DNA of 24,000 nucleotides from Synechococcus sp. A15-24 (GCF_014280195.1 NZ_CP047960.1:1218220-1242219), one strand, 5' to 3'. Counted from the first letter of the stretch, positions 1 to 17,787 are shown. A program made the numbers and translations. The notes: a model not told the origin generated them from the sequence alone.

Positions 1-468
1 GCCCTGACGCGCCGCGAGGCCCTGGTGGCGGAGGTTCAGGCTGAGGTGGGAGCCGAACTGGCCCGTGCCGAAGCTGAGGTGCCGGTGCAACAGGAACGCA
101 TCAAGCAGGTCACGCAGCAGCTCGAAGCGGATGTGATCGCCCCGGCGGAATCGGAATGCCAGACAATGATGGCCGAGGCCAAAGGTGAAGCGGCCACGAT
201 CGTCGAGCAGGGTCGCTCCCAGGCGGAAGGTCTGCGGGATCTGGTGGAGTCGCTGAAACGGTCCGGCGATGACGCCAAACGATTGTTCCTGCTGCAGAAA
301 CTCGAGCCGCTGCTGACGATGCTCAGCGACACCGTTCAGCCGATCGAGGTGGAGGAGGTGAACCTGATCGGTGAGCGGGAGGGGCAGATCAACCTGTCCC
401 TGGCCACCCTGCTGAAACAACTGCAGCAGAGCACCGGCTTGCGTCTGCCTGTCAGCGAGAGCGAATGA
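1..468 (+). CDS. SPFH/flotillin-family protein, C-terminal part (5' end lies outside the window)
   Basis: The frame is open from base 1, so ORF-track 25..468 is only the in-window tail. It has a long Ala/Glu/Gln-rich coiled-coil stretch (AEVQAEVGAELARAEAEVPVQQERIKQV...) and a tail typical of bacterial flotillin (YqiK/FloT-like) C-termini. Stop TGA at 466-468. Confidence 0.55.
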   Translation, partial: ALTRREALVAEVQAEVGAELARAEAEVPVQQERIKQVTQQLEADVIAPAESECQTMMAEAKGEAATIVEQGRSQAEGLRDLVESLKRSGDDAKRLFLLQKLEPLLTMLSDTVQPIEVEEVNLIGEREGQINLSLATLLKQLQQSTGLRLPVSESE

Positions 469-523
469 AACGGTTCTTTCTGCTACAGCTTCGCCAGGAT
501 CAAACTTAAGTTTCTCTCTCCCC

Positions 524-769
524 ATGTCGCGTGCCACCCGTCTGATCAACCGTCTGGACAAGGTGCTGGCCCGGCATGACAGCTTCGGCGACGATCCGGC
601 GGCCTTCGTGGACAGCGTGTTCGCCGAAATCGAAGAGCAGCTGGAACCGGTGAAGGCCAAGTCGAAGCCCGAACACTGGGCTGAGATCTATGTGGAACGG
701 GATCGCGCCCGGATCAAGGAGCAGGTGCTCAACCGCGTGATGGAGCGCGGGGCCGAAGCAGTCGATTAA
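524..769 (+). CDS. hypothetical small acidic protein (81 aa)
   Basis: ATG-initiated ORF with protein-like, helical, charged composition. It is convergent with mntA and the two ends overlap by 4 nt. No recognisable motif. Confidence 0.45.
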   Translation: MSRATRLINRLDKVLARHDSFGDDPAAFVDSVFAEIEEQLEPVKAKSKPEHWAEIYVERDRARIKEQVLNRVMERGAEAVD

Positions 770-1521
770 AGGGAATCGTCGCTGGAGCTGTTGCCGGTCA
801 ACAGATCCGGCGGCAACCCACCGAACGTCATGGCGAGATTCTCTGGGGTGAACACCTCGGAGGTTTCGCCGTAGGCCAGAACGGTTTTGTTGATCAACAC
901 CACGAGATCGCAGAACTCCCGCACATGACTCAGGTCATGGGTGGAGATAAGAATCGTGCGGCCGTCCTCGCGGAACTGCATGAACAGTTCCGCCATCAAC
1001 TTTTCAGTGCGAACGTCAACGCCGTTGAAGGGTTCATCCAGCAGGAGCACATCGGCACGCTGCGCGATCGCCCGAGCCAGAAAGGCGCGTTTGCGCTGTC
1101 CACCGGAGAGGGCTCCGATCGGCCTTGAGCGAAGGTCAAACAGATCCACCCGCTTCAAGGCGTCGCGCACAGCCACCCGATCGGAACTGCGGGGAATGCG
1201 CAGCAGATTCATGGCGCCGTAGCGCCCCATCATCACCACATCCCAGACGGAGACAGGGAACTGACTATCGATCCCCTCGCTCTGGGGTACGTAGGCCACC
1301 GACTGCTGCCGCTGGGCCTCCGCGACTGGAGCACCGTTGATACGGATGCGTCCACGGGATGGACGGACAAAGCCGGTGAGAGCTTTGAACAAGGTGGACT
1401 TGCCGGCACCATTCATGCCCACCAGGCCGCAGATGCAACCAGCGGGAAGGTGCAGGCTGGCGTCATAGAGCGCCACGGTGCCGTTGTAGTCAACGCAGAG
1501 CTGATCCGCCTCGATCCGCAT
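766..1521 (-). CDS. mntA: ABC transporter ATP-binding protein, Mn/Zn (MntA/ZnuC/TroB) type
   Basis: 251 aa. Walker A GMNGAGKST, ABC signature LSGGQRKR, Walker B VLLLDEP, H-loop ISTHD. Its ATG overlaps the stop of the upstream binding-protein gene (ATGA at 1519-1523), which implies an operon. Confidence 0.85.
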   Translation of the reverse strand: MRIEADQLCVDYNGTVALYDASLHLPAGCICGLVGMNGAGKSTLFKALTGFVRPSRGRIRINGAPVAEAQRQQSVAYVPQSEGIDSQFPVSVWDVVMMGRYGAMNLLRIPRSSDRVAVRDALKRVDLFDLRSRPIGALSGGQRKRAFLARAIAQRADVLLLDEPFNGVDVRTEKLMAELFMQFREDGRTILISTHDLSHVREFCDLVVLINKTVLAYGETSEVFTPENLAMTFGGLPPDLLTGNSSSDDSL

Positions 1522-2456
1522 CAGCGCTGCACCTCCAGAAGTCCGGACCTGATCAGATCCATATTGTGACGCTGGAGCTCCAGCAACGAAGGGGCCGGTC
1601 CATCTGCCTCCGAGAGGGAATCAACGTAAAAGCTGCCCCCGAAGCGGGCCCCAGCGGCAGTGGCCACCTCCCGCTGCGCCTTGTCGGAGACCGTGCTTTC
1701 GCAATAAATCGTGGGAATGTCACGCTCCCGAACGGTCGCGATCAGGCGGGCCATCCGCTTCGGCGTGACCTGACTCTCCGCATTCACTGGCCAGAGGTAG
1801 GCCTCCTCGAAGCCATAGTCCTGCGCCAGGTAGGAGAAGGCCCCTTCACAGGTCACCAACAGCCGACGCTCTGGCGGAATGGTTTGAAGGGCATCGCGCA
1901 GATCATGGTCCAGCTGCTGAAGCTCAGCCTTGTAAACGGCGGCATTGGCTGCGAACTGTTCAGCGCCAGCTGGATCGAGGTCTGAAAAAGCATCCACCAA
2001 GCGATCCACGTAGTGCATCGTCCGCTGCGGCGACATCCAGGCGTGGGGATTGGGCTTTCCGGCGTAAGCATCCTCTGTGATCAGCAGCGGTTGCATCCCT
2101 TCGGCAAGGGTGAGGGTCGGCACGTCACCAGCGGCAGCCGTGAATCGACGGAACCAGAGCTCCAGGCCCAGACCGTTTTCAACAATCAGATCAGCGGAAC
2201 TGGCCCGTTCGATGTCACTGGGGGTGGGCTGATAGCCGTGGATTTCGGCTCCAGGCTTGACGATGGAGCGCACATGTAGGCGATCCCCAGCCACATTTCT
2301 TGCCAGATCGGCCAGCACGGTGAAGCTGGTGAGAACCGTTGGTCTGGAATCGGAGGTTTGCTGTTCTGGATCGCGACTGCTGCAGCCGGCCAATGCAACC
2401 AAGGCCAGCAGCACCAGGCTGAACGAATGTCGAACCACCCTTTTCAACGACGCCAT
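1521..2456 (-). CDS. mntC: Mn(II) ABC transporter substrate-binding lipoprotein (TroA/cluster A-I family, MntC-like)
   Basis: 311 aa. Lipobox LVALAGC|S. Blocks recalled from Synechocystis MntC: TSFTVLADLARNVAGD, GAEIHGYQPTPSD, KPNPHAWMSP, CEGAFSYLAQDYG, YCESTVSDK, ARFGGSFYVDSLS. Confidence 0.85.
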   Translation of the reverse strand: MASLKRVVRHSFSLVLLALVALAGCSSRDPEQQTSDSRPTVLTSFTVLADLARNVAGDRLHVRSIVKPGAEIHGYQPTPSDIERASSADLIVENGLGLELWFRRFTAAAGDVPTLTLAEGMQPLLITEDAYAGKPNPHAWMSPQRTMHYVDRLVDAFSDLDPAGAEQFAANAAVYKAELQQLDHDLRDALQTIPPERRLLVTCEGAFSYLAQDYGFEEAYLWPVNAESQVTPKRMARLIATVRERDIPTIYCESTVSDKAQREVATAAGARFGGSFYVDSLSEADGPAPSLLELQRHNMDLIRSGLLEVQR

Positions 2457-4152: not shown

Positions 4153-4309
4153 GAATCCATGCTGGCAAGGCCAGACAAGAGCACAGTCGCCAATTGGTAG
4201 CCGTTGTTACAGAAATGGCCTATGGTCAAGGCACGTTGAGCTTCATCCATGGAGCTGCAGTCAGACCCACGCCAGGCAACGGGGGCATGGGCGCTGAAGA
4301 GGTGATGTC

Positions 4310-10241: not shown

Positions 10242-10634
10242 CTACGGCCCACTGAGTTGCTGGAATAGGGAACGACGGTCCTGCTCCAACTCAATCTGAA
10301 TGGTGCGCGCCACCGCCTGAGGATCACTAAGAACCGCGTCATGGGTGAACCGCAGCGTGCGCAGATGGCGACTGAGGAGACGATCACGGTTGTAATCCTT
10401 GTCGCGGCGTTTGGTTTTGTTGTGGCGAGCTCCGTCAATTTCCACATTGAGCAGCCCATGGGGGGAGATCACCAGCAGATCCAGGGTGCGACGGGTGCCT
10501 GTTGCACCCTCAGGAATGCAGATGTGCACCTCAAAACTGAACAGAAGTCCGGCAGCTTCGAGGGCCTCACACAGCCGCACATGACCCTCTGACTGAAGAT
10601 CAACCCCCTTGAACCTCTGCTCCCACTCAGCCAT
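10242..10634 (-). CDS. DUF559 / Vsr-like restriction-endonuclease-fold protein
   Basis: 130 aa. The pattern D-L-L-V...N-V-E-I-D-G-A-R-H...D..R...L...LRF matches the DUF559 (PD-(D/E)xK-like) signature. Confidence 0.6.
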   Translation of the reverse strand: MAEWEQRFKGVDLQSEGHVRLCEALEAAGLLFSFEVHICIPEGATGTRRTLDLLVISPHGLLNVEIDGARHNKTKRRDKDYNRDRLLSRHLRTLRFTHDAVLSDPQAVARTIQIELEQDRRSLFQQLSGP

Positions 10635-11231: not shown

Positions 11232-11971
11232 GACCCGATTGCGTGGATCGCCAAGCTAAGGGCGTAGTCACAAACCAAGCGAATGGGTCAATAGATCTTG
11301 ATGTCGACGAGACGTTTCTTTATGTCCATGAGAACAAGGACCTGACTCGAGCTCAATCCATTCCAGGACCAACGCATGCAGGCAAGCGAGAGCACTCCTC
11401 TGCTCCTGAGAGCCGGCGGGTGTGTACTTGAAATCCATGAACGCCCGGTCAGCCAGCGGTCGTTGCTGGAGGCAGCGATCCTGAATAGACATCAACTTTG
11501 GGGCTGCCCCGAACCTGAGAGGCGCGAGATCCAAAGCACCATGCTGGCGGCGGAAAAGGCGCCAAAAATGGTTAGAAGCAGCTGCGTAGACATCTCGCTG
11601 AGGCGCGCTTTCAGCGCAACCGTGAACTTCTTCACAAAACTACACGCGCTGATCCTGCTGTGTGGGCACGTCCATCAGTCGAGCGCGAACAGCCGTGCGC
11701 GAGCAGCAGCACCAATCACCGATGTGTCATGTTGAAGTGGTGAAGCAGGTCTGTTCAGGCCTGTGAGCTGAGCAACCCTGATAACGCAGGCGAGCGAGAA
11801 CCCGATAACCCTGTTTTGAACCCAATGAAGAAACACACCGCACGGCGTGCCGCAAACTTGACTGCGCGCAAGAGCGCAACCCCGAAGCACCCTCCTTCCA
11901 ACCAGCTCAAAACCTCTCCCCAACTCATCAGCTGGGAAGAGGTCATCGGCAAGCGCTGAACCGAGCTGAAA

Positions 11972-12217
11972 TCAGCGGCGGGGTTCGGCCTGACGAACTG
12001 TGATCCCGCGTCCCATCCACTCGACGTCCTGCAGGTCGTCGATGGCGGACTTTTCATCCGCAGCATTGGCAAGGTCGACAAAGGCAAAGCCACGCTTTCG
12101 GCCGGTCTCCCGATCCAAAGGCAGCGAACACTTGCTGACCTCGCCGTACTGGCTGAACAGATGAACGAGGTCTTCTCTCTCAGCGTCCCAGGAGAGATTG
12201 CCAATGAAAATCGTCAA
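11972..12217 (-). CDS. RRM-type RNA-binding protein (cyanobacterial Rbp family)
   Basis: RNP2 IFIGNL and RNP1 KRGFAFVD motifs, and the typical short Rbp length. There is no in-frame ATG. The best start is TTG at 12217, giving MTIFIGNLSW; the ORF track's alternative is TTG at 12229. Confidence 0.85.
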   Translation of the reverse strand: MTIFIGNLSWDAEREDLVHLFSQYGEVSKCSLPLDRETGRKRGFAFVDLANAADEKSAIDDLQDVEWMGRGITVRQAEPRR

Positions 12218-12275
12218 AAAAAAGGCCAAAACCGTACTAACTCACCATCGCATACAGCCGTACCTTGAATGCCAC

Positions 12276-12545
12276 TCATCCAGCAGGCTCAGTAGGCGGT
12301 GGCAGTGACAGAACGAATGTCAGCAGAGCTGAAGCAAGACGTGCGTCGCCCTCAAGTACTAAGAGACGGTGCACGTCCATCGCTTGACCAAGGTCCGGCG
12401 TCGCCGATCCGTTGATCAGACCACGCGCTTTGCTGCGGGCGATCACGTGCTGGAGCGACATGGTCATGACTCCAAGCTGGCTTATCTGAAACCAAAGCCC
12501 TTCAGGTCTTCCACATTGCAGCGGTATTGGGCCAAAACCAGGCAT
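12276..12545 (-). CDS. hypothetical protein (89 aa) starting 3 nt beyond repeat copy 1
   Basis: This is the non-repeat part of ORF-track 12276..12767. The ATG at 12545 gives MPGFGPIPLQCGRPEGLWFQISQLGVMTMSLQHVIARSKARGLINGSATPDLGQAMDVHRLLVLEGDARLASALL... No motif, and internal ATGs at 12467/12461 are alternative starts. Confidence 0.3.
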   Translation of the reverse strand: MPGFGPIPLQCGRPEGLWFQISQLGVMTMSLQHVIARSKARGLINGSATPDLGQAMDVHRLLVLEGDARLASALLTFVLSLPPPTEPAG

Positions 12546-12547
12546 GG

Positions 12548-13010
12548 GCACGCCATTTCCAACATCGGTGGGCGCTGCCCCAGAGGCAATGCGCCTTAAC
12601 ACCGATTGCCGGATGTGCTCCACGCGACCAACACTGTGGTCATCGAGATCGGAGGTGCCCATGACGGCCGACACTCCACCTGAGCAACACCCAGAAGCTG
12701 CCTGACTGACTCGGCTCCTGCTCCAACAGTTTCCACACATCCGTAAGGCTCGTCCTTTGGCAGGCATTCCTTGAGCGCCACGTCAATCGACACTCCATTG
12801 CACCGTCCTCAGGTGCCCAGGAGTCCACAAGCCTTCACAACTGGACCCCATGGCCCCAGGCGCCATCCAGCCAGACGCTTCGACCGTTTCTTCAGTCCCT
12901 TTGCTTGAGGTTCCAACTCACTGAAGCATTACTGATCAGGTCGATTGCTATGCACAAACGAGCGAGATAGGCCGTCCTTCCCATCCGGGAGGGGCGGCCT
13001 TCCCCTTGTT
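12548..13010. repeat. 463-bp direct repeat, copy 1 (left boundary of the OCP cassette)
   Basis: Base-by-base alignment with 16690-17152 shows the same orientation, no indels and 5 substitutions (12558, 12737, 12766, 12808, 12920). Homology ends abruptly at both edges. There are no plus-strand ORFs of 60 aa or more, and the minus strand has only mutually overlapping ORFs in all three frames. Confidence 0.95.
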
Positions 13011-13099
13011 GGGTGCATGGATCAAATCAATAGAAGGCCTGTTGTTTGGCGCTTTTCGATCCTTGGACTGTTCACCCTGGATGTAGTTGCAGCGAAGCC

Positions 13100-13294
13100 A
13101 TGGGTGGATTGAGTGGCACCAAATCGGACGACTTCATCAACGCCGCCAAAGCACGTGCTGAGGCCGCCATTCAAGACAACCAGCCAAAGCTGACCAAACT
13201 GGAAAAGGCTTTCCGCCATGCCGCCCTGCGGCGCCGGGCCCAGGATGCCCGCAGGGCTGCTGACGACCATCGCGCCAAACCCAACACTCCATAA
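13100..13294 (+). CDS. hypothetical small basic protein (64 aa) upstream of ocp
   Basis: ORF-track 13046..13294 (TTG start) trimmed to the ATG at 13100: MGGLSGTKSDDFINAAKARAEAAIQDNQPKLTKLEKAFRHAALRRRAQDARRAADDHRAKPNTP. Predicted helical and Lys/Arg-rich. No motif. Confidence 0.4.
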   Translation: MGGLSGTKSDDFINAAKARAEAAIQDNQPKLTKLEKAFRHAALRRRAQDARRAADDHRAKPNTP

Positions 13295-13385
13295 CAGATC
13301 AGAGCGACATCCGCAGGCCCTGAGCCCAATCCAGCGTGAACTCGAAACATAGTGTTACGGTTCGAAGGCTCTGTGTCCCCTGCGG

Positions 13386-14342
13386 ATGTTCACGCTCGAC
13401 AAAGCTCGTCAGATCTTCCCAGACACGTTGAGCGCTGGTGCAGTCCCGGCCATCACAGCCCGCTTCAAGCTGCTGAGCGCAGAGGACCAGTTGGCACTTA
13501 TCTGGTTTGCCTATCTGGAAATGGGGAAGACCATCACCGTGGCGGCACCGGGTGCGGCCCGCATGGCGCTGGCACAGCCGACGATGGATGAAATTCTGGC
13601 GATGAGCTTTGACGAGCAGACCAAGGTGATGTGCGATTTGGCTTCCAAGATCAACAGCCCGATTTCGGCGCGCTACGCCTACTGGTCGGTGAACGTGAAG
13701 CTGTGCTTCTGGTACGAGCTGGGCGAATTCATGCGCCAGGGCAAGGTGGCTCCGATTCCTCAGGGGTACAGGTTGTCCGCAAACGCCAACTCGGTGCTGG
13801 AGGCCGTCAAGAAAGTTGAGCAGGGCCAACAGATCACCCTGCTGCGCAACTTCGTGGTCGACATGGGCTACGACCCCGATGTGGACGACAGCCAGGTGGT
13901 CACCGAGCCGATCGTGGCTCCGACACCGGTTGATCAACGCGAGGAGATTCTGATCCCCGGCGTGCTGAATCAGACCATCCTCAGCTACATGCAGCTGCTC
14001 AATGCCAACGACTTTGATCAGCTGATCGATCTGTTTCTCAACGATGGTGCTCTGCAGCCCCCGTTCCAGCGTCCCATTGTCGGCCGCGACGCCATCCAGA
14101 AATTCTTCAAGCGGGATTGTCAGAACCTGAAGTTGATGCCCCAGGGCGGTTATGGCGAGCCGACCGAAGGTGGCTTCAATCAGATCAAGGTCACCGGCAA
14201 GGTGCAGACCCCCTGGTTCGGTCGTGAGGTGGGCATGAACGTGGCTTGGCGCTTCCTTCTGGATGAAAACGACAAAATCTATTTCGTGGCCATCGACTTG
14301 CTGGCATCTCCAGCCGAGTTGCTCAAGCTGGGTGGCAAATGA
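13386..14342 (+). CDS. ocp: orange carotenoid protein (full length: N-terminal carotenoid-binding domain plus NTF2-like C-terminal domain)
   Basis: 318 aa, collinear with Synechocystis Slr1963 as I recall it. Shared blocks: EDQLALIWFAYLEMGKT, MCDLA, GYRLSANAN, GQQITLLRN.VVDMG, LNANDFD.LI.LF..DGALQPPFQRPIVG, CQNLKL.P, QIKVTGKVQTPWFG..VGMN.AWRFLL, FVAIDLLASP. Confidence 0.97.
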   Translation: MFTLDKARQIFPDTLSAGAVPAITARFKLLSAEDQLALIWFAYLEMGKTITVAAPGAARMALAQPTMDEILAMSFDEQTKVMCDLASKINSPISARYAYWSVNVKLCFWYELGEFMRQGKVAPIPQGYRLSANANSVLEAVKKVEQGQQITLLRNFVVDMGYDPDVDDSQVVTEPIVAPTPVDQREEILIPGVLNQTILSYMQLLNANDFDQLIDLFLNDGALQPPFQRPIVGRDAIQKFFKRDCQNLKLMPQGGYGEPTEGGFNQIKVTGKVQTPWFGREVGMNVAWRFLLDENDKIYFVAIDLLASPAELLKLGGK

Positions 14343-15066
14343 GTTCAGCCCTCAGGCCCGCAAAGGGTTGGTTCTGGCTGGTCTGATTGGATCCGCCTGG
14401 CTGCTCTCCCTGGGCCTGAGCTACACCCTGCCACTCGATCAGACGCCTGGGCTGTTGATTGGCAGCTTGATTCTGCTGAGGGCCTTTCTGCATACCGGGC
14501 TGTTCATCGTTGCCCACGATTCCATGCACGCCAGTCTTGTTCCGGGTCATCCCGGATTGAACAGCTGGATCGGCAAAGTTTGTTTAATGATGTATGCAGG
14601 CTTGTCTTATGAGCGTTGTTCCCGCAACCACATACGTCATCACCTGGCACCGGAAACGTTCCAGGATCCTGACTACCAATGTTGCACGAAAAACAACATC
14701 CTGGATTGGTATGTTCACTTTATGGGCAACTATCTGGGTGGCCAACAACTGTTGAATTTAAGTTTTCTTTGGCTGACACTTGTCATTCTCAACGGTTCTG
14801 ATCTCCCTGTTCAGATCATGCATCTGCTGTTGTTCAGCGTTCTGCCACTGATCATCAGTTCCTGTCAATTGTTTCTAGTGGGAACCTGGTTACCCCACCG
14901 ACGTGGGGCCACGACACGACCGGGCGTGACAACGCGCAGCCTGGCCTTGCATCCAGCACTATCTTTCGCAGCTTGTTACCACTTTGGCTATCATCGCGAA
15001 CATCATGAATCGCCTTCCACTCCCTGGTTTCAGCTGCCACAACTCCGAAGTGAATCATTCATTTGA
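14332..15066 (+). CDS. crtW: beta-carotene ketolase CrtW
   Basis: Three His boxes of the CrtW/fatty-acid-desaturase type (HDSMH, HIRHH, HREHH) plus hydrophobic segments. The ORF track starts at ATG 14263, 80 nt inside ocp. I prefer the in-frame GTG at 14332 (MANEFSPQARKG...), which overlaps the ocp stop by 11 nt. The start is uncertain. Confidence 0.9.
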   Translation: MANEFSPQARKGLVLAGLIGSAWLLSLGLSYTLPLDQTPGLLIGSLILLRAFLHTGLFIVAHDSMHASLVPGHPGLNSWIGKVCLMMYAGLSYERCSRNHIRHHLAPETFQDPDYQCCTKNNILDWYVHFMGNYLGGQQLLNLSFLWLTLVILNGSDLPVQIMHLLLFSVLPLIISSCQLFLVGTWLPHRRGATTRPGVTTRSLALHPALSFAACYHFGYHREHHESPSTPWFQLPQLRSESFI

Positions 15067-15111
15067 CCATTTCTGACCAACGCTGATTTCCTCCTCACCG
15101 CTTTCCCCTTC

Positions 15112-15432
15112 ATGTCGGCAACAGACTGGACATCCGAAGAACAGGCCGTTGCCCGCACTGCCTTCGAACTTGGCAAACATCGTTCAATCACGGCTTTGAT
15201 TTCAACTCTGCAGGAGCAATCCAGCAACCTTGATACACCGGAATCGGTCTGGAAGCTGCATGACCACCTCAGCACTGAGCGCTATCTGTATGAAGGGCGC
15301 GCTGAGTTTGACGAAGGTAATGTGTTGTTCGTGTTAGCCGACATGATCAAACAACGTTTGATCGCTTTGGATGATCTGCAAGGGTTGGATCAAACTAAAG
15401 TGATCAAAGTCAAAGCGATGTCGATGTTCTGA
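15112..15432 (+). CDS. frp: fluorescence recovery protein FRP
   Basis: 106 aa and helical. The WKLHDHLS...R motif and overall pattern resemble Synechocystis Slr1964. The position directly after ocp-crtW is canonical. Confidence 0.9.
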   Translation: MSATDWTSEEQAVARTAFELGKHRSITALISTLQEQSSNLDTPESVWKLHDHLSTERYLYEGRAEFDEGNVLFVLADMIKQRLIALDDLQGLDQTKVIKVKAMSMF

Positions 15433-15470
15433 TCGACACGCAGAGATGTGATCAGAACCACCAGGCAACT

Positions 15471-16676
15471 TCAACGCAGTGAGCGTCCCTTCCAGGTCCA
15501 CCCCTGACCGGTGAAGGTCCGCCAAACCGACACGGGCCCGATGGCGCCAACAATCAACCCTCCGGCCCCCATCAGCCACCAGTAATCGATGGGTAGTTGA
15601 AATTCCCGTCTGGTCCACAGACGCAGGATGAACTGCTGAAGAACTGCGACTGTGGCGGCAGCCAGCAGAGCCAGCCACCACCGCTGAGCGATCGGGAGAA
15701 CCAACAACAATCCAGTCGAAACTGGAATCAGCAACCAGGGCAGGCTGAACATCAGCACCACCACGCCAGCAGCAGCCAGTCCTTTGCCGGGATCGCGATC
15801 CAGTCCAAGGCACCAGTTTTTGGTCCAGCCTTCCCACAACGCGGCCAGATCGGCGTACATACGCAGATCAACGGCATCAAGACCCAGCAGGTAGCGCAAG
15901 CGATAACCGCCCGTCTTGATCCTGCGCGCCAATGCCAGATCCTCCACCACCTCTGCCGCCAGAGCACGGTGCCCACCGATCCGCTCATAAACACTGCGGC
16001 GGATGAGCATGAACGGTCCCGCAGCAAAGGCAACGTCGGAGTCGGGATCATTGGCGGCCTCGATCGGAAAACCCAGCCCCAGCAGGCTGGCCATGATCGG
16101 TTGCACCATCCATTCGGCCAAGCAGCCACAGGTGAGTCGCGGCGCCAGGCTCAACAGATCCGCCTGATCCGCGATCGCCTGAGCCAGTGCTCGTGGGATG
16201 GCATCGGCTTGAAGCTGCACATCGGCATCGATGAACAGCACCCAGTCGCTGCGCACCTGCTCCATGGCCCGGGTGCACGCCCAGTTCTTGCCCACCCAGC
16301 GTTCAGAGGCCGGACGGGGACCTGCCGGCAGCACACTGAACCCCGCCGTGGACTGCGGGTGGCGGGCAGCACAGGCCACCGCCAGCTCCGCTGTGGCATC
16401 GGTTGAGTCGTCATCCACCACCAACACCTGCCACTCCACGCAGGGGGGCTGGCCCTTGAGCACGCTGGCCAGGCAAGCGCCGATGTTGCCGGCTTCGTTG
16501 TAGGCCGGAATCACCACCGTGAGGGAGGTCCGGGGCACAGGCGTGTCCGCCGCAGCCTGCAACTGCGGCGCCACTGCGAACACCCGCCAGAGACCGAGCT
16601 GCAGGATCAACAGGCCAATGCAGGAGGCCATGGCGGTGGCCAGCAACCCCAGCGCAACGATCACCAGTGGATCCAA
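15471..16676 (-). CDS. membrane-bound family-2 glycosyltransferase (CrtQ/HpnB-like architecture)
   Basis: 401 aa. An N-terminal TM helix, then a GT-A core (VVIPAYNEAGNI, VVDDDSTDAT, DXD in FIDADV), then three or four C-terminal TM helices. The start is TTG 16676 (14 nt from repeat copy 2) or ATG 16631. It is convergent with frp across a 38-bp gap. Confidence 0.8.
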   Translation of the reverse strand: MDPLVIVALGLLATAMASCIGLLILQLGLWRVFAVAPQLQAAADTPVPRTSLTVVIPAYNEAGNIGACLASVLKGQPPCVEWQVLVVDDDSTDATAELAVACAARHPQSTAGFSVLPAGPRPASERWVGKNWACTRAMEQVRSDWVLFIDADVQLQADAIPRALAQAIADQADLLSLAPRLTCGCLAEWMVQPIMASLLGLGFPIEAANDPDSDVAFAAGPFMLIRRSVYERIGGHRALAAEVVEDLALARRIKTGGYRLRYLLGLDAVDLRMYADLAALWEGWTKNWCLGLDRDPGKGLAAAGVVVLMFSLPWLLIPVSTGLLLVLPIAQRWWLALLAAATVAVLQQFILRLWTRREFQLPIDYWWLMGAGGLIVGAIGPVSVWRTFTGQGWTWKGRSLR

Positions 16677-16689
16677 AGGCTGTCGGCAA

Positions 16690-17152
16690 GCACGCCATTC
16701 CCAACATCGGTGGGCGCTGCCCCAGAGGCAATGCGCCTTAACACCGATTGCCGGATGTGCTCCACGCGACCAACACTGTGGTCATCGAGATCGGAGGTGC
16801 CCATGACGGCCGACACTCCACCTGAGCAACACCCAGAAGCTGCCTGACTGACTCGGCTCCTGCTCCAACAGTTTCCACCCATCCGTAAGGCTCGTCCTTT
16901 GGCAGGCTTTCCTTGAGCGCCACGTCAATCGACACTCCATTGCACCGTCTTCAGGTGCCCAGGAGTCCACAAGCCTTCACAACTGGACCCCATGGCCCCA
17001 GGCGCCATCCAGCCAGACGCTTCGACCGTTTCTTCAGTCCCTTTGCTTGAGGTTCCAACTCCCTGAAGCATTACTGATCAGGTCGATTGCTATGCACAAA
17101 CGAGCGAGATAGGCCGTCCTTCCCATCCGGGAGGGGCGGCCTTCCCCTTGTT
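16690..17152. repeat. 463-bp direct repeat, copy 2 (right boundary of the OCP cassette)
   Basis: See copy 1: 458/463 identical, same orientation, offset exactly 4142 bp. Confidence 0.95.
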
Positions 17153-17356
17153 CATATGGTGCAATTAAGGTGTGGAGCTGATGTTTACCGAACGCAATCA
17201 ATGATTTGCCGGATTGCAGCGGCTCGCATATGTTTTCTGGGTGAAGAGAAGTGCAGGCGACAGATTCCACTAAGCGGTGCATGCCTCGGCTGTCTGATTG
17301 CACCCTGATCGCTCCACGGCGTTGACTTCACGCAACCGTGATTCCGGAGACGAGCC

Positions 17357-17521
17357 ATGACATCAGCCTCTGTGGTGACCACGCGCGATGGAGACACCGT
17401 GCGCATGTTTCAGGGCGTGGATGGACCGTTTTACCGCGCCTGCAACGGCAACCGCTGCGTGAACTGCCGAGATCTGGTGATCGCCCTCGAGCATCTCAAG
17501 GTCTGGCGTCAGAAGCTCTGA
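17357..17521 (+). CDS. hypothetical small protein (54 aa)
   Basis: Hand-translated as MTSASVVTTRDGDTVRMFQGVDGPFYRACNGNRCVNCRDLVIALEHLKVWRQKL. Protein-like, with a C-x4-C-x2-C cluster. It replaces ORF-track 17338..17535, which is in another frame and is Arg/Pro-rich. Confidence 0.4.
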   Translation: MTSASVVTTRDGDTVRMFQGVDGPFYRACNGNRCVNCRDLVIALEHLKVWRQKL

Positions 17522-17550: not shown

Positions 17551-17787
17551 TTACTTCTGGCGCTTAAAGGTGTAGCAACCACCGTGGTAACCGGTGAAGG
17601 GCTGGGCATAGGTGGTGAGCTCCCAGCCCTGTTCCCCCAGCTCATTCATCAACCCCACCAAGGTCACATCACGCTGGGGGTGGCTGCGGGAAATGATCTG
17701 ACGATCATCCAGCCACAACTCTTCGATCTCACCGGTCCACGACTTACCGCGGGGCACAAAGCGGAGCTGGGTGTATTCCCACTTCAT
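17551..17787 (-). CDS. DUF4177-like small protein
   Basis: ORF-track 17551..17967 trimmed to the ATG at 17787: MKWEYTQLRFVPRGK...LMNELGEQGWELTTY... The MKWEY start and the LNELGEEGWEL-type motif fit DUF4177. Confidence 0.55.
   Translation of the reverse strand: MKWEYTQLRFVPRGKSWTGEIEELWLDDRQIISRSHPQRDVTLVGLMNELGEQGWELTTYAQPFTGYHGGCYTFKRQK

Follow-up and report, generated by a model that had tools for sequence, protein, structure and literature searches.

A conserved element of about 460 nt flanks the ocp-crtW-frp operon as direct repeats in marine Synechococcus

Gene content and repeat pair of the ocp locus

The window analysed here, a stretch of 24,000 nt from Synechococcus sp. A15-24, is syntenic with Synechococcus WH8102. 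It harbours two direct copies of a conserved element, termed R, which enclose a 64-aa ORF, ocp, crtW, frp and a convergent gene for a family-2 glycosyltransferase (GT2); the copy on the rbp side is designated R' (Table 1). According to Pfam matches above the curated cut-offs, the locus encodes an OCP with Carot_N and NTF2 domains, a CrtW-type ketolase (the name carried by its homologues in their source records) and FRP, the components of an OCP-FRP photoprotection module. The domain matches bear out the gene content (ocp, crtW, frp and GT2) given in an earlier annotation of this DNA, referred to below as the sequence-only reading.

Pfam searches yielded no match for the 54-aa ORF downstream of R, nor for two longer readings of 82 aa (13046-13294) and 163 aa (12276-12767) that contain the 64-aa and the 63-aa ORF, respectively. 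The GT2 start is separated from the edge of R by 14-26 nt and is overlapped by a 47-aa upstream ORF (uORF). About 8 of the 47 uORF residues are changed relative to the related locus L019, and the KORDI-49 copies are frame-shifted by a 1-nt deletion; the uORF is probably not a conserved protein. No tRNA was found at the locus, and integrase or transposase domains were absent from the window ORFs tested as well as from the called genes of homologous loci. Terminal inverted repeats of R were not detected in the window either (minimum length 30 nt), its ends, GCACGCC... and ...CCCCTTGTT, not being complementary. As regards tRNA, integrase, transposase and terminal inverted repeats, the searches agree with the sequence-only reading.

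When the window was compared at an offset of 4142 nt, the two copies proved to be 463 bp long, with five substitutions and no indels. Their edges are sharp, only 2-3 of 10 bases matching in the 10-base blocks just outside each of them, so that the previous description of length, divergence and abrupt edges stands. A repeat search of the window (at least 30 nt) revealed no further repeat family and no inverted repeat. Both copies are also present in 12 other WH8102-type assemblies, which comprise finished genomes (WH8102, RS9915 and three more strains), SAGs and metagenome scaffolds. An assembly artefact, with the segment collapsed or duplicated, had been considered in the earlier reading and is refuted by this recurrence: the same structure is found in 13 sequences (finished genomes, SAGs, metagenome scaffolds, several sample sets), strain-specific substitutions occur in both copies, and nothing beyond the general risk posed by near-identical repeats speaks for an artefact. 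Six of ten metagenome contigs carrying rbp stop inside or at R', as expected when an assembler meets a genuine repeat.

Table 1. Features at the ocp locus of Synechococcus sp. A15-24 (window coordinates)
Feature	Coordinates	Strand	Remarks
rbp, RRM-type RNA-binding protein gene	11972..12229	-	Pfam RRM_1; left neighbour in every arrangement
63-aa ORF between rbp and R'	12276..12467	-	called in all clade-III-like loci
R', rbp-side copy of the ~460-nt element	12548..13010	.	kept in all 13 WH8102-type sequences
Terminal 13-14-bp hairpin of R', then TTCCCCTTGTT	12970..12999	+	terminator-like on the + strand
64-aa ORF	13100..13294	+	outside the ocp unit; stays by the GT2 3' end in OCP-less L019 and L034
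ocp (orange carotenoid protein)	13386..14342	+	Pfam Carot_N 6.9e-59, NTF2 7.1e-15
crtW-type beta-carotene ketolase gene	14332..15066	+	Pfam FA_desaturase 1.9e-18
frp (fluorescence recovery protein)	15112..15432	+	Pfam PF18032 5.6e-27
GT2, convergent with frp	15471..16676	-	Pfam Glycos_transf_2
47-aa uORF, starts inside R, overlaps GT2 start (GTGA)	16661..16804	-	called in many genomes
R, GT2-side copy, type 1	16690..17152	.	offset comparison and orthologous copies in relatives
Terminal hairpin of R, same as in R'	17112..17141	+	paired throughout on the + strand (2 G.U pairs); 2 C.A mismatches on the - strand
54-aa ORF downstream of R	17357..17521	+	87% nucleotide identity to A15-28

Arrangements in related genomes

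The genome of A15-28 (CP047931) is collinear with window positions 18488-13023, including ocp, crtW, frp, GT2 and a single GT2-side R. The operon, GT2 and the 64-aa ORF occupy the same places as in the window, but a full rbp-side copy is missing, 58 nt standing where the window has 12530-13022. Two further loci, L019 and L034, lack exactly ocp-crtW-frp and keep GT2, the 64-aa ORF and the GT2-side copy, in the order flank, R, GT2, 64-aa ORF, 63-aa ORF, rbp; the breakpoints are the stop of the 64-aa ORF and the stop of GT2, not positions within R. Thus the patchy occurrence of OCP, to which the sequence-only reading had drawn attention, is seen here among close relatives, and the unit that varies among them is ocp-crtW-frp alone. 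The single R upstream of GT2 is orthologous in all three (identity of 92% in A15-28, 94% in L019 and 92% in L034). R' is replaced in each of them by a segment of 58-65 nt with a decayed R tail of 40-70 nt. The tail of A15-28 aligns to R 422-461 with a score reached by none of 500 shuffles, those of L019 and L034 align to R 398-436 and R 404-434, respectively (3 of 500 shuffles each). At the L019 junction, GCAGCGGTATTG is followed by diverged R from about position 398.

A different arrangement is found in KORDI-49 (CP006270) and, with the same order, in locus L035: rbp, R_a, ocp-crtW-frp, R_b, DUF4278 and a homologue of the 64-aa ORF. Here two direct copies of ~460 nt bracket ocp-crtW-frp alone. 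R_a lies ~67 nt upstream of the rbp start, GT2 is missing between frp and R_b, and the 64-aa homologue is located outside the pair, downstream of R_b. In L035, R_a is of type 2 and R_b of type 1, the two being 86% alike; central regions are ~50% identical between the types and 87-98% identical within a type. The R_b of L035, although positioned downstream of frp, belongs to the same type as the GT2-side R (90-92% identity). That OCP loci may be repeat-bounded therefore holds for the window, KORDI-49 and L035, with the qualification that the bounded unit in the latter two is ocp-crtW-frp only. In other clades, GT2 resides in a different neighbourhood. The 64-aa ORF and GT2 are placed differently in the clade-III and the KORDI-49 arrangement, for which at least two further rearrangements must be assumed.

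Sequence exchange between the copies

Concerted evolution was assessed in the 12 non-identical genomes with both copies. Within a genome the copies differ by 3.0 positions on average (range 0-8), versus 8.8 (range 1-17) for orthologous copies of different genomes, and for 22 of the 23 non-singleton derived alleles there is at least one genome that carries the allele in both copies. In KORDI-49, R_a and R_b (spacing 2723 bp) are 100% identical over 434 bp, only the first ~40 nt having remained of different types, which is the pattern of a conversion tract. Judged from these allele patterns, the copies recombine, gene conversion being shown by their concerted evolution. The ~99% identity is that of a homogenised old pair and does not reflect a recent origin; the age of the pair is deduced from the two diverged paralogous types in L035 and from the decayed tails at the "empty" sites. 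Recombination between the copies, as envisaged in the sequence-only reading, is hence supported as far as exchange by gene conversion is concerned, but the absence of OCP in the relatives did not come about by crossover between the repeats.

Nature of element R

R extends over ~460 nt, from GCACGCC to CCTTCCCCTT. It forms a discrete unit that does not code for protein and is strongly conserved in clade-III-like marine Synechococcus and in the KORDI-49 lineage. Between the window and A15-28 it is 91% identical (94% in the distal 296 nt), versus 67-78% for true intergenic DNA and 83% for GT2. A conserved protein in R is excluded by one-nucleotide indels together with the shifted uORF frame in KORDI-49. 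The terminal hairpin block, together with the nucleotides preceding it, does not vary among full-length copies, whatever the lineage. R folds similarly on either strand; pairs with both sides changed are about as frequent as in shuffles, numbering 5 on the + strand (3.7 in shuffles) and 3 on the - strand (2.2 in shuffles), most pairs being invariant. The + strand ends in a perfect terminator-like hairpin, and three of the four contexts of R are divergent intergenic regions; both features suggest a role for R as an RNA or regulatory element. No promoter was recognised within R. Rfam 15 covariance models gave no match at the gathering score in the window or in seven related loci, and at E values up to 10 only two chance-level matches appeared over 16600-17400.

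As far as can be seen, R is not dispersed. ORFs beginning in R occur in just three C-terminal contexts among 5.8 billion proteins, an nhmmer search over ~0.5 Mb of loci, including the 20-kb flanks of six finished genomes, recovered the known R copies only, and phage, plasmid and viral-contig collections contained no match. One scan of a genome collection returned a chance match only, the known WH8102 and A15-28 loci not being returned either. It is accordingly improbable that R transposed to several sites around the ocp operon as a non-autonomous mobile element, whether MITE-like or of IS200/IS605- or IS91-type descent. Such an element would account for the same sharp boundaries in four contexts (upstream of GT2, rbp and ocp, downstream of frp) and for an invariant subterminal hairpin without terminal inverted repeats, as in hairpin-ended elements. 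Yet every context falls within one ~5-kb neighbourhood with no transposase nearby, and the small number of ORF contexts, the lack of extra copies in the 20-kb flanks and the lack of phage, plasmid or viral copies likewise speak against mobility. A possible target-site duplication, GCATGG, is present on both sides of R', the right-hand one outside the repeat edge; nothing comparable flanks other R copies, and a convincing duplication is lacking.

Origin of the repeat pair

We regard an old direct pair of conserved R copies, homogenised by conversion and followed by later losses in relatives, as the best explanation of the locus, with a probability of roughly 65%. It draws on the repeat as observed, its conservation and concerted evolution, the alternative arrangements and the tails. 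The two copies would have flanked the ocp-crtW-frp operon, one towards rbp and the other towards frp. Both would have survived in the WH8102-type lineage, to which the window belongs. There the 64-aa ORF and GT2 are also enclosed by the pair, and intrachromosomal gene conversion holds the copies at ~99% identity; as conversion cannot pass beyond the homology, the repeat edges are sharp. In A15-28, L019 and L034, most of the rbp-side copy would have been deleted, leaving a tail of 40-70 nt that has since decayed, and the junction fits a ~415-bp deletion between two ATTG motifs. The polarity (an ancient pair, then loss), deduced from few lineages, and the deletion mechanism are what we infer.

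Alternatively, the rbp-side copy could be a new duplication specific to the WH8102 lineage, the clade-III ancestor having had only a short tail at the rbp side. The copy would then have arisen by repair or conversion templated on the GT2-side R, anchored by the tail homology and by microhomology at the other end. The full copy is missing from three of the four clade-III-like lineages sampled, R' belongs to type 1 from end to end and shares 99% identity with R, and the left 18 nt and right ~11 nt at the flanks of R' cannot be aligned to other lineages, all of which such an event would explain. However, a full-length copy lies beside rbp in the outgroups KORDI-49 and L035, so that a loss and a regain would be needed, and the L019 junction is the product expected of an ATTG-to-ATTG deletion from a WH8102-type state. 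We therefore consider a new duplication unlikely. Far less probable is the proposal of the sequence-only reading that the 4142-bp interval was brought in on circular DNA through a single crossover with a resident 463-bp sequence, or else stems from a recent segmental duplication, and that crossover between the repeats removes it as a unit. Flanking direct repeats with sharp edges are indeed present (12548-13010 and 16690-17152), the copies demonstrably exchange sequence, and the tighter R / ocp-crtW-frp / R order of KORDI-49 and L035 has the topology of a Campbell insertion. But A15-28 contains the whole interval without a second full copy, and the diverged paralogous types and the tails mark the pair as old. 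Outer flanks joined by a single copy were not found: in OCP-lacking relatives the rbp flank and the flank from 17153 onwards had been predicted to meet at one copy, whereas L019 and L034, with one R, keep GT2 and the 64-aa ORF between them. Nor is 4142 bp the unit of gain and loss, as A15-28 lacks just the full second copy and L019 and L034 lack ocp-crtW-frp only. These arrangements contradict a recent Campbell-type insertion of 4142 bp, and they show that the known absence of OCP is not due to repeat crossover. A crossover deletion of 4142 bp is physically possible; the deletion allele was absent from ~17 spanning contigs, and a deletion-junction pattern scan of metagenome contigs gave 0 matches, with low power since only three relevant contigs were available there.

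What can be retained is an operon situated between two unusually conserved copies of ~460 nt in three or more lineages, the model strains WH8102 and KORDI-49 among them, while an attractive but wrong explanation of the locus, a recent 4.1-kb cassette insertion, is removed. This raises the possibilities that R is expressed as a regulatory RNA with a link to the expression of ocp, rbp or GT2, and that the operon is excised or re-integrated by way of the repeats. More speculatively, and in our estimate rather doubtful, R could be a hitherto undescribed element with a function, probably that of a structured RNA or of a regulatory module, and its paired copies could make ocp-crtW-frp a recombinase-free cassette, the WH8102 type being a rearranged descendant. 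If so, crossover in the configuration of KORDI-49 and L035 would free a ~2.7-kb circle of one R and the operon, and homologous recombination could return the operon to any genome in which an R is resident. Such a process would be one reason why OCP is patchily distributed among marine Synechococcus.

Comparison with known systems

In the examined passages of PMC10119275, ocp-crtW-frp is the accessory cluster Syn-eCAG_016 of marine Synechococcus, treated as a presence/absence unit linked to cold water, and OCP-based quenching is accessory with a patchy distribution that tracks cold and mixed waters. The locus described here has the same three genes in the same order; no description of a flanking conserved repeat pair was found in those passages or in other literature searches.

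Yfr103 is an abundant multi-copy ncRNA of 290-328 nt in marine picocyanobacteria, reported in WH8102 and KORDI-49, with copy coordinates given for CC9605; its family trait is a TSS with an upstream imperfect palindrome (PMC5069720). Compared by description only, R resembles Yfr103 in being multi-copy, a few hundred nt in size and present in WH8102 and KORDI-49, and its best-conserved distal ~300 nt end in a terminator-like hairpin. Rfam, on the other hand, yields nothing above chance level for R even when E values up to 10 are admitted. A relationship to Yfr103 is a lead only. Yfr103 is described as light- and temperature-responsive (PMC5069720), a behaviour that would suit an ocp neighbour.

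With Campbell scars and excisable units the locus shares the repeat-cargo-repeat topology, the cargo being exactly ocp-crtW-frp in KORDI-49 and L035, where the product of crossover would be a circle with the operon and a single repeat. It differs from a Campbell scar in being an old pair with diverged paralogous types, in that the predicted empty site is contradicted for the window, and in that neither circle nor deletion allele was seen in the spanning contigs and the low-power scan.

Duplicated tuf or rRNA genes in bacteria undergo concerted evolution via intrachromosomal gene conversion. The R copies behave similarly: two of them lie in the same orientation a few kb apart, are closer within than between genomes, have derived alleles in common and, in KORDI-49, display a visible conversion tract (434 bp). 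Unlike tuf and rRNA genes, however, R is a non-coding element of ~460 nt, and its pair consistently brackets one accessory operon, ocp-crtW-frp.

The repeat pair in the window

The two copies of the non-coding element R, the GT2-side copy R and the rbp-side copy R', are direct repeats of 463 bp with five substitutions and no indels. An offset comparison bore out their sharp edges as claimed in the sequence-only reading, since outside each edge 10-base blocks agree at just 2-3 of 10 bases. A repeat search found this pair as the sole long repeat in the window and no inverted repeats. The claimed absence of integrase, transposase, tRNA and terminal inverted repeats was likewise upheld: no tRNA was found in the window, and no integrase or transposase domain by Pfam among the window ORFs tested.

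Features in the window and in the loci compared (L numbers), each counted along its own sequence
Feature	Position	Strand	Remark
Glutamine-II riboswitch aptamers	window 4231-4291; L035 9683-9746; L036 (KORDI-49) 11669-11732	+ (window)	Rfam RF01704, 48-71 bits
130-aa ORF	window 10242-10634	-	DUF559 / REase_MTES_1575 endonuclease-like domains; kept in related loci
rbp, RRM protein gene	left of the repeats		Pfam
163-aa ORF	window 12276-12767	-	uORF starting inside R' and reading in frame across the 63-aa ORF upstream of rbp
R', rbp-side copy	window 12548-13010
ocp (OCP)	between the repeats		Pfam Carot_N and NTF2
CrtW-type ketolase	between the repeats		Pfam
FRP	between the repeats		Pfam
Family-2 glycosyltransferase (GT2)	between the repeats	convergent	Pfam
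R, GT2-side copy	window 16690-17152
78-aa protein	window 17551-17787	-	faint DUF4177 hint
Both copies in L016	10637-11099; 14781-15243
GT2 orthologue in L022 and L023	7001-8236
Junction contig L029 (OZSS01012853.1)	1-1588		R ends at about window 17002, joined to inverted segment matching window 19574-19101
OCP-module irregularities	L002 5938-6758; L011 12354-12590; L015 12674-13444

Exact-protein look-ups recovered the synteny of the window in Synechococcus WH8102 (BX548020), in the finished genomes CP047955, CP047956, CP047934 (RS9915) and CP047947, and in SAGs and metagenome scaffolds. The OCP and GT2 proteins of the window and the GT2 homologue P0099 of Synechococcus A15-60 had no exact match on record. 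Both copies were present in 12 of 12 WH8102-type assemblies at a spacing of 4140-4142 bp, so the duplication is real and an assembly artefact is ruled out. Six of ten rbp-bearing metagenome contigs end in or at the rbp-side copy.

Related loci with a single copy

It had been proposed that the copies bound a 4142-bp cassette, gained by Campbell-type insertion or segmental duplication and lost by crossover between them. A15-28 (CP047931) is collinear with window 18488-13023 over GT2, frp, crtW, ocp and the 64-aa ORF and carries a single R (92% identity) upstream of GT2, with just 58 nt replacing window 12530-13022. Two further loci, L019 and L034, also have one R each upstream of GT2 (92-94% identity); here the 64-aa ORF adjoins the 3' end of GT2, and in L019 about 34 nt stand in for window 13285-15482. 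These two loci are without exactly ocp-crtW-frp, and also without a full rbp-side copy. OCP thus occurs with one R in A15-28 and is missing with one R in L019 and L034, i.e. its presence is independent of that of the second copy. The predicted empty site, with the outer flanks joined by a single copy, is not present, as the loci lacking OCP retain GT2 and the 64-aa ORF, and the 4142-bp interval as a unit is contradicted by these loci. What stands of the repeat-bounded interpretation is the architecture and recombination between the copies; the proposed origin, unit and route of loss do not.

The rbp-side 'empty' sites align to the end of R: that of A15-28 to R 422-461 (0 of 500 shuffles reached the observed score), that of L019 to R 398-436 and that of L034 to R 404-434 (3 of 500 each). 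In the L019 and L034 tails the hairpin is preserved through changes in both arms. Judged by these alignments, the 'empty' sites hold decayed R tails. At the L019 junction, GCAGCGGTATTG is succeeded by diverged R from about position 398, the outcome that would be expected had a WH8102-type sequence been deleted from one ATTG motif to another.

The element around the operon in KORDI-49 and L035

A small ORF that starts inside R has just three C-terminal contexts (GT2-side, rbp-side and frp-side) among 5.8 billion proteins, and the frp-side context led to the loci L033, L035 and KORDI-49 (CP006270). These loci run rbp, R_a, ocp-crtW-frp, R_b, a glutamine-II riboswitch with a DUF4278 gene, and a homologue of the 64-aa ORF, R_a and R_b being the rbp-side and frp-side copies of the element; in their broader gene order (epimerase ... 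acetyltransferase, CP12, RimK) they agree with the window. In KORDI-49 and L035 the riboswitch lies directly between R_b and the DUF4278 small ORF. R_a and R_b of KORDI-49, spaced 2723 bp apart, are 100% identical across 434 bp and differ in their first ~40 nt. Those of L035 are 86% alike and represent two types, whose central regions share ~50% identity between types versus 87-98% within a type; R_b of L035 falls in the clade-III type, at 90-92% identity to the window. Both edges of the element are the same in every copy and every context. L033 resembles a circular R-frp-crtW-ocp unit, but in view of L035, a 39-kb scaffold from that lineage, it is better explained by the assembler having cycled through two homogenised copies.

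Concerted evolution and origin of the pair

The two copies of one genome are separated by 0-8 differences (mean 3.0), orthologous copies across genomes by 1-17 (mean 8.8). Of the 23 derived alleles that recur, 22 are shared by the two copies in one or more genomes, and one is locus-specific. Copies that are alike within genomes and share derived alleles indicate that gene conversion maintains their high identity, which is thus uninformative on the age of the duplication. In L016 the GT2-side copy has alleles common to L008 and L009 and the rbp-side copy is WH8102-group-like, which suggests that recombination between strains had a breakpoint within the bracketed interval.

Because decayed R tails lie at the 'empty' sites and the same element brackets the operon in KORDI-49 and L035, an ancient pair of direct copies would be the most economical reading of the loci compared. 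The WH8102 type would have kept the old pair and homogenised it, and the rbp-side copy would have been truncated in the other lineages of clade-III-like kind. The rbp-side copy may instead have been re-created in a lineage-specific event. Derivation of R' from a crossover between R_a and R_b via flank homology was also considered, but the matches were short and unconvincing. The 64-aa ORF and GT2 are placed differently in the WH8102-type and KORDI-49-type arrangements. The GT2 orthologue of other Synechococcus clades (L022, L023; 69-72% amino acid identity) is flanked by VanW/cobW/ZnuA genes and a GAF-domain gene, and neither R nor ocp is found within 7 kb of it. In the clade-III-like lineages, GT2 therefore seems to have moved to its place beside frp and R.

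Nature and dispersal of the element

When the window is compared with A15-28, R proves better conserved than the regions around it: the whole element is 91% and its distal 296 nt 94% identical, compared with 67-78% for true intergenic DNA, 83% for GT2 and 90.5% for ocp. In the same comparison the 78-aa gene at window 17551-17787 reaches 95% at the DNA level, unusually high for a small hypothetical gene, and 1132 blocks of the collection contain its exact protein sequence. The last ~64 nt of R are invariant across all lineages and include a 13-14-bp hairpin, then TTCCCCTT; the arms of the hairpin pair perfectly on the + strand, with two C.A mismatches on the - strand. In three of four contexts R occupies a divergent intergenic region. 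A protein-coding role was rejected, as L019 has a 1-nt deletion inside the sole long internal ORFs, and a 47-aa uORF did not hold up as a conserved protein, its differences being mostly non-synonymous and its frame shifted in KORDI-49. In other strains the R' uORF ends after 59 aa (P0129-P0131); the 163-aa read-through is probably fortuitous. Rfam gave no match for R at gathering score or at E up to 10, covariation was not significant on either strand, double changes being too sparse to assign a structure or a strand, and a simple promoter scan recognised no site.

R lacks terminal inverted repeats, shows no convincing target duplication and is accompanied by no transposase. Searches of 20 kb on either side in six finished genomes turned up no further copies, and there were none in phages and plasmids (BLASTN) or viral contigs (two pattern scans). 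A genome-collection scan with an invariant 20-mer gave one chance match (a Fimbriimonadales MAG) and also missed the known WH8102 and A15-28 loci, presumably masked or absent there. The predicted deletion junction, GCGGTATTGGGCCAAAACCAGG-(486 nt)-TGTGGAGCTGATGTT, had no match in metagenome contigs, a weak negative since a control scan found just three relevant contigs in that collection; all of the ~17 spanning contigs lack the deletion allele. The 4142-bp crossover deletion, unobserved so far, is possible. The L029 junction is a rearrangement unless the contig is chimeric.

Variability of the operon and comparison with known elements

The irregularities of the OCP module comprise an ocp called in three fragments in SAG GCA_902540675.1, an frp called at just 78 aa in CP047955 and no called crtW in RHLE01000002. 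They could be decay in some strains, i.e. pseudogenes, or sequencing or annotation errors. The ocp-crtW-frp genes are treated as a variable cluster in the available text of PMC10119275, and the available portions of the literature searched gave no description of a flanking repeat pair. Yfr103, an abundant multi-copy ncRNA of 290-328 nt in WH8102 and KORDI-49 (PMC5069720), is a possible lead to the identity of R. Its copies in CC9605 include, in Table S2 of that paper, Yfr103e (nTSS-520624, start 520334, - strand), Yfr103g (1437033, +) and Yfr103f (946997, +). We file the window pair as a new case of concerted evolution between paralogous repeats, with an undescribed conserved non-coding element as the unit.
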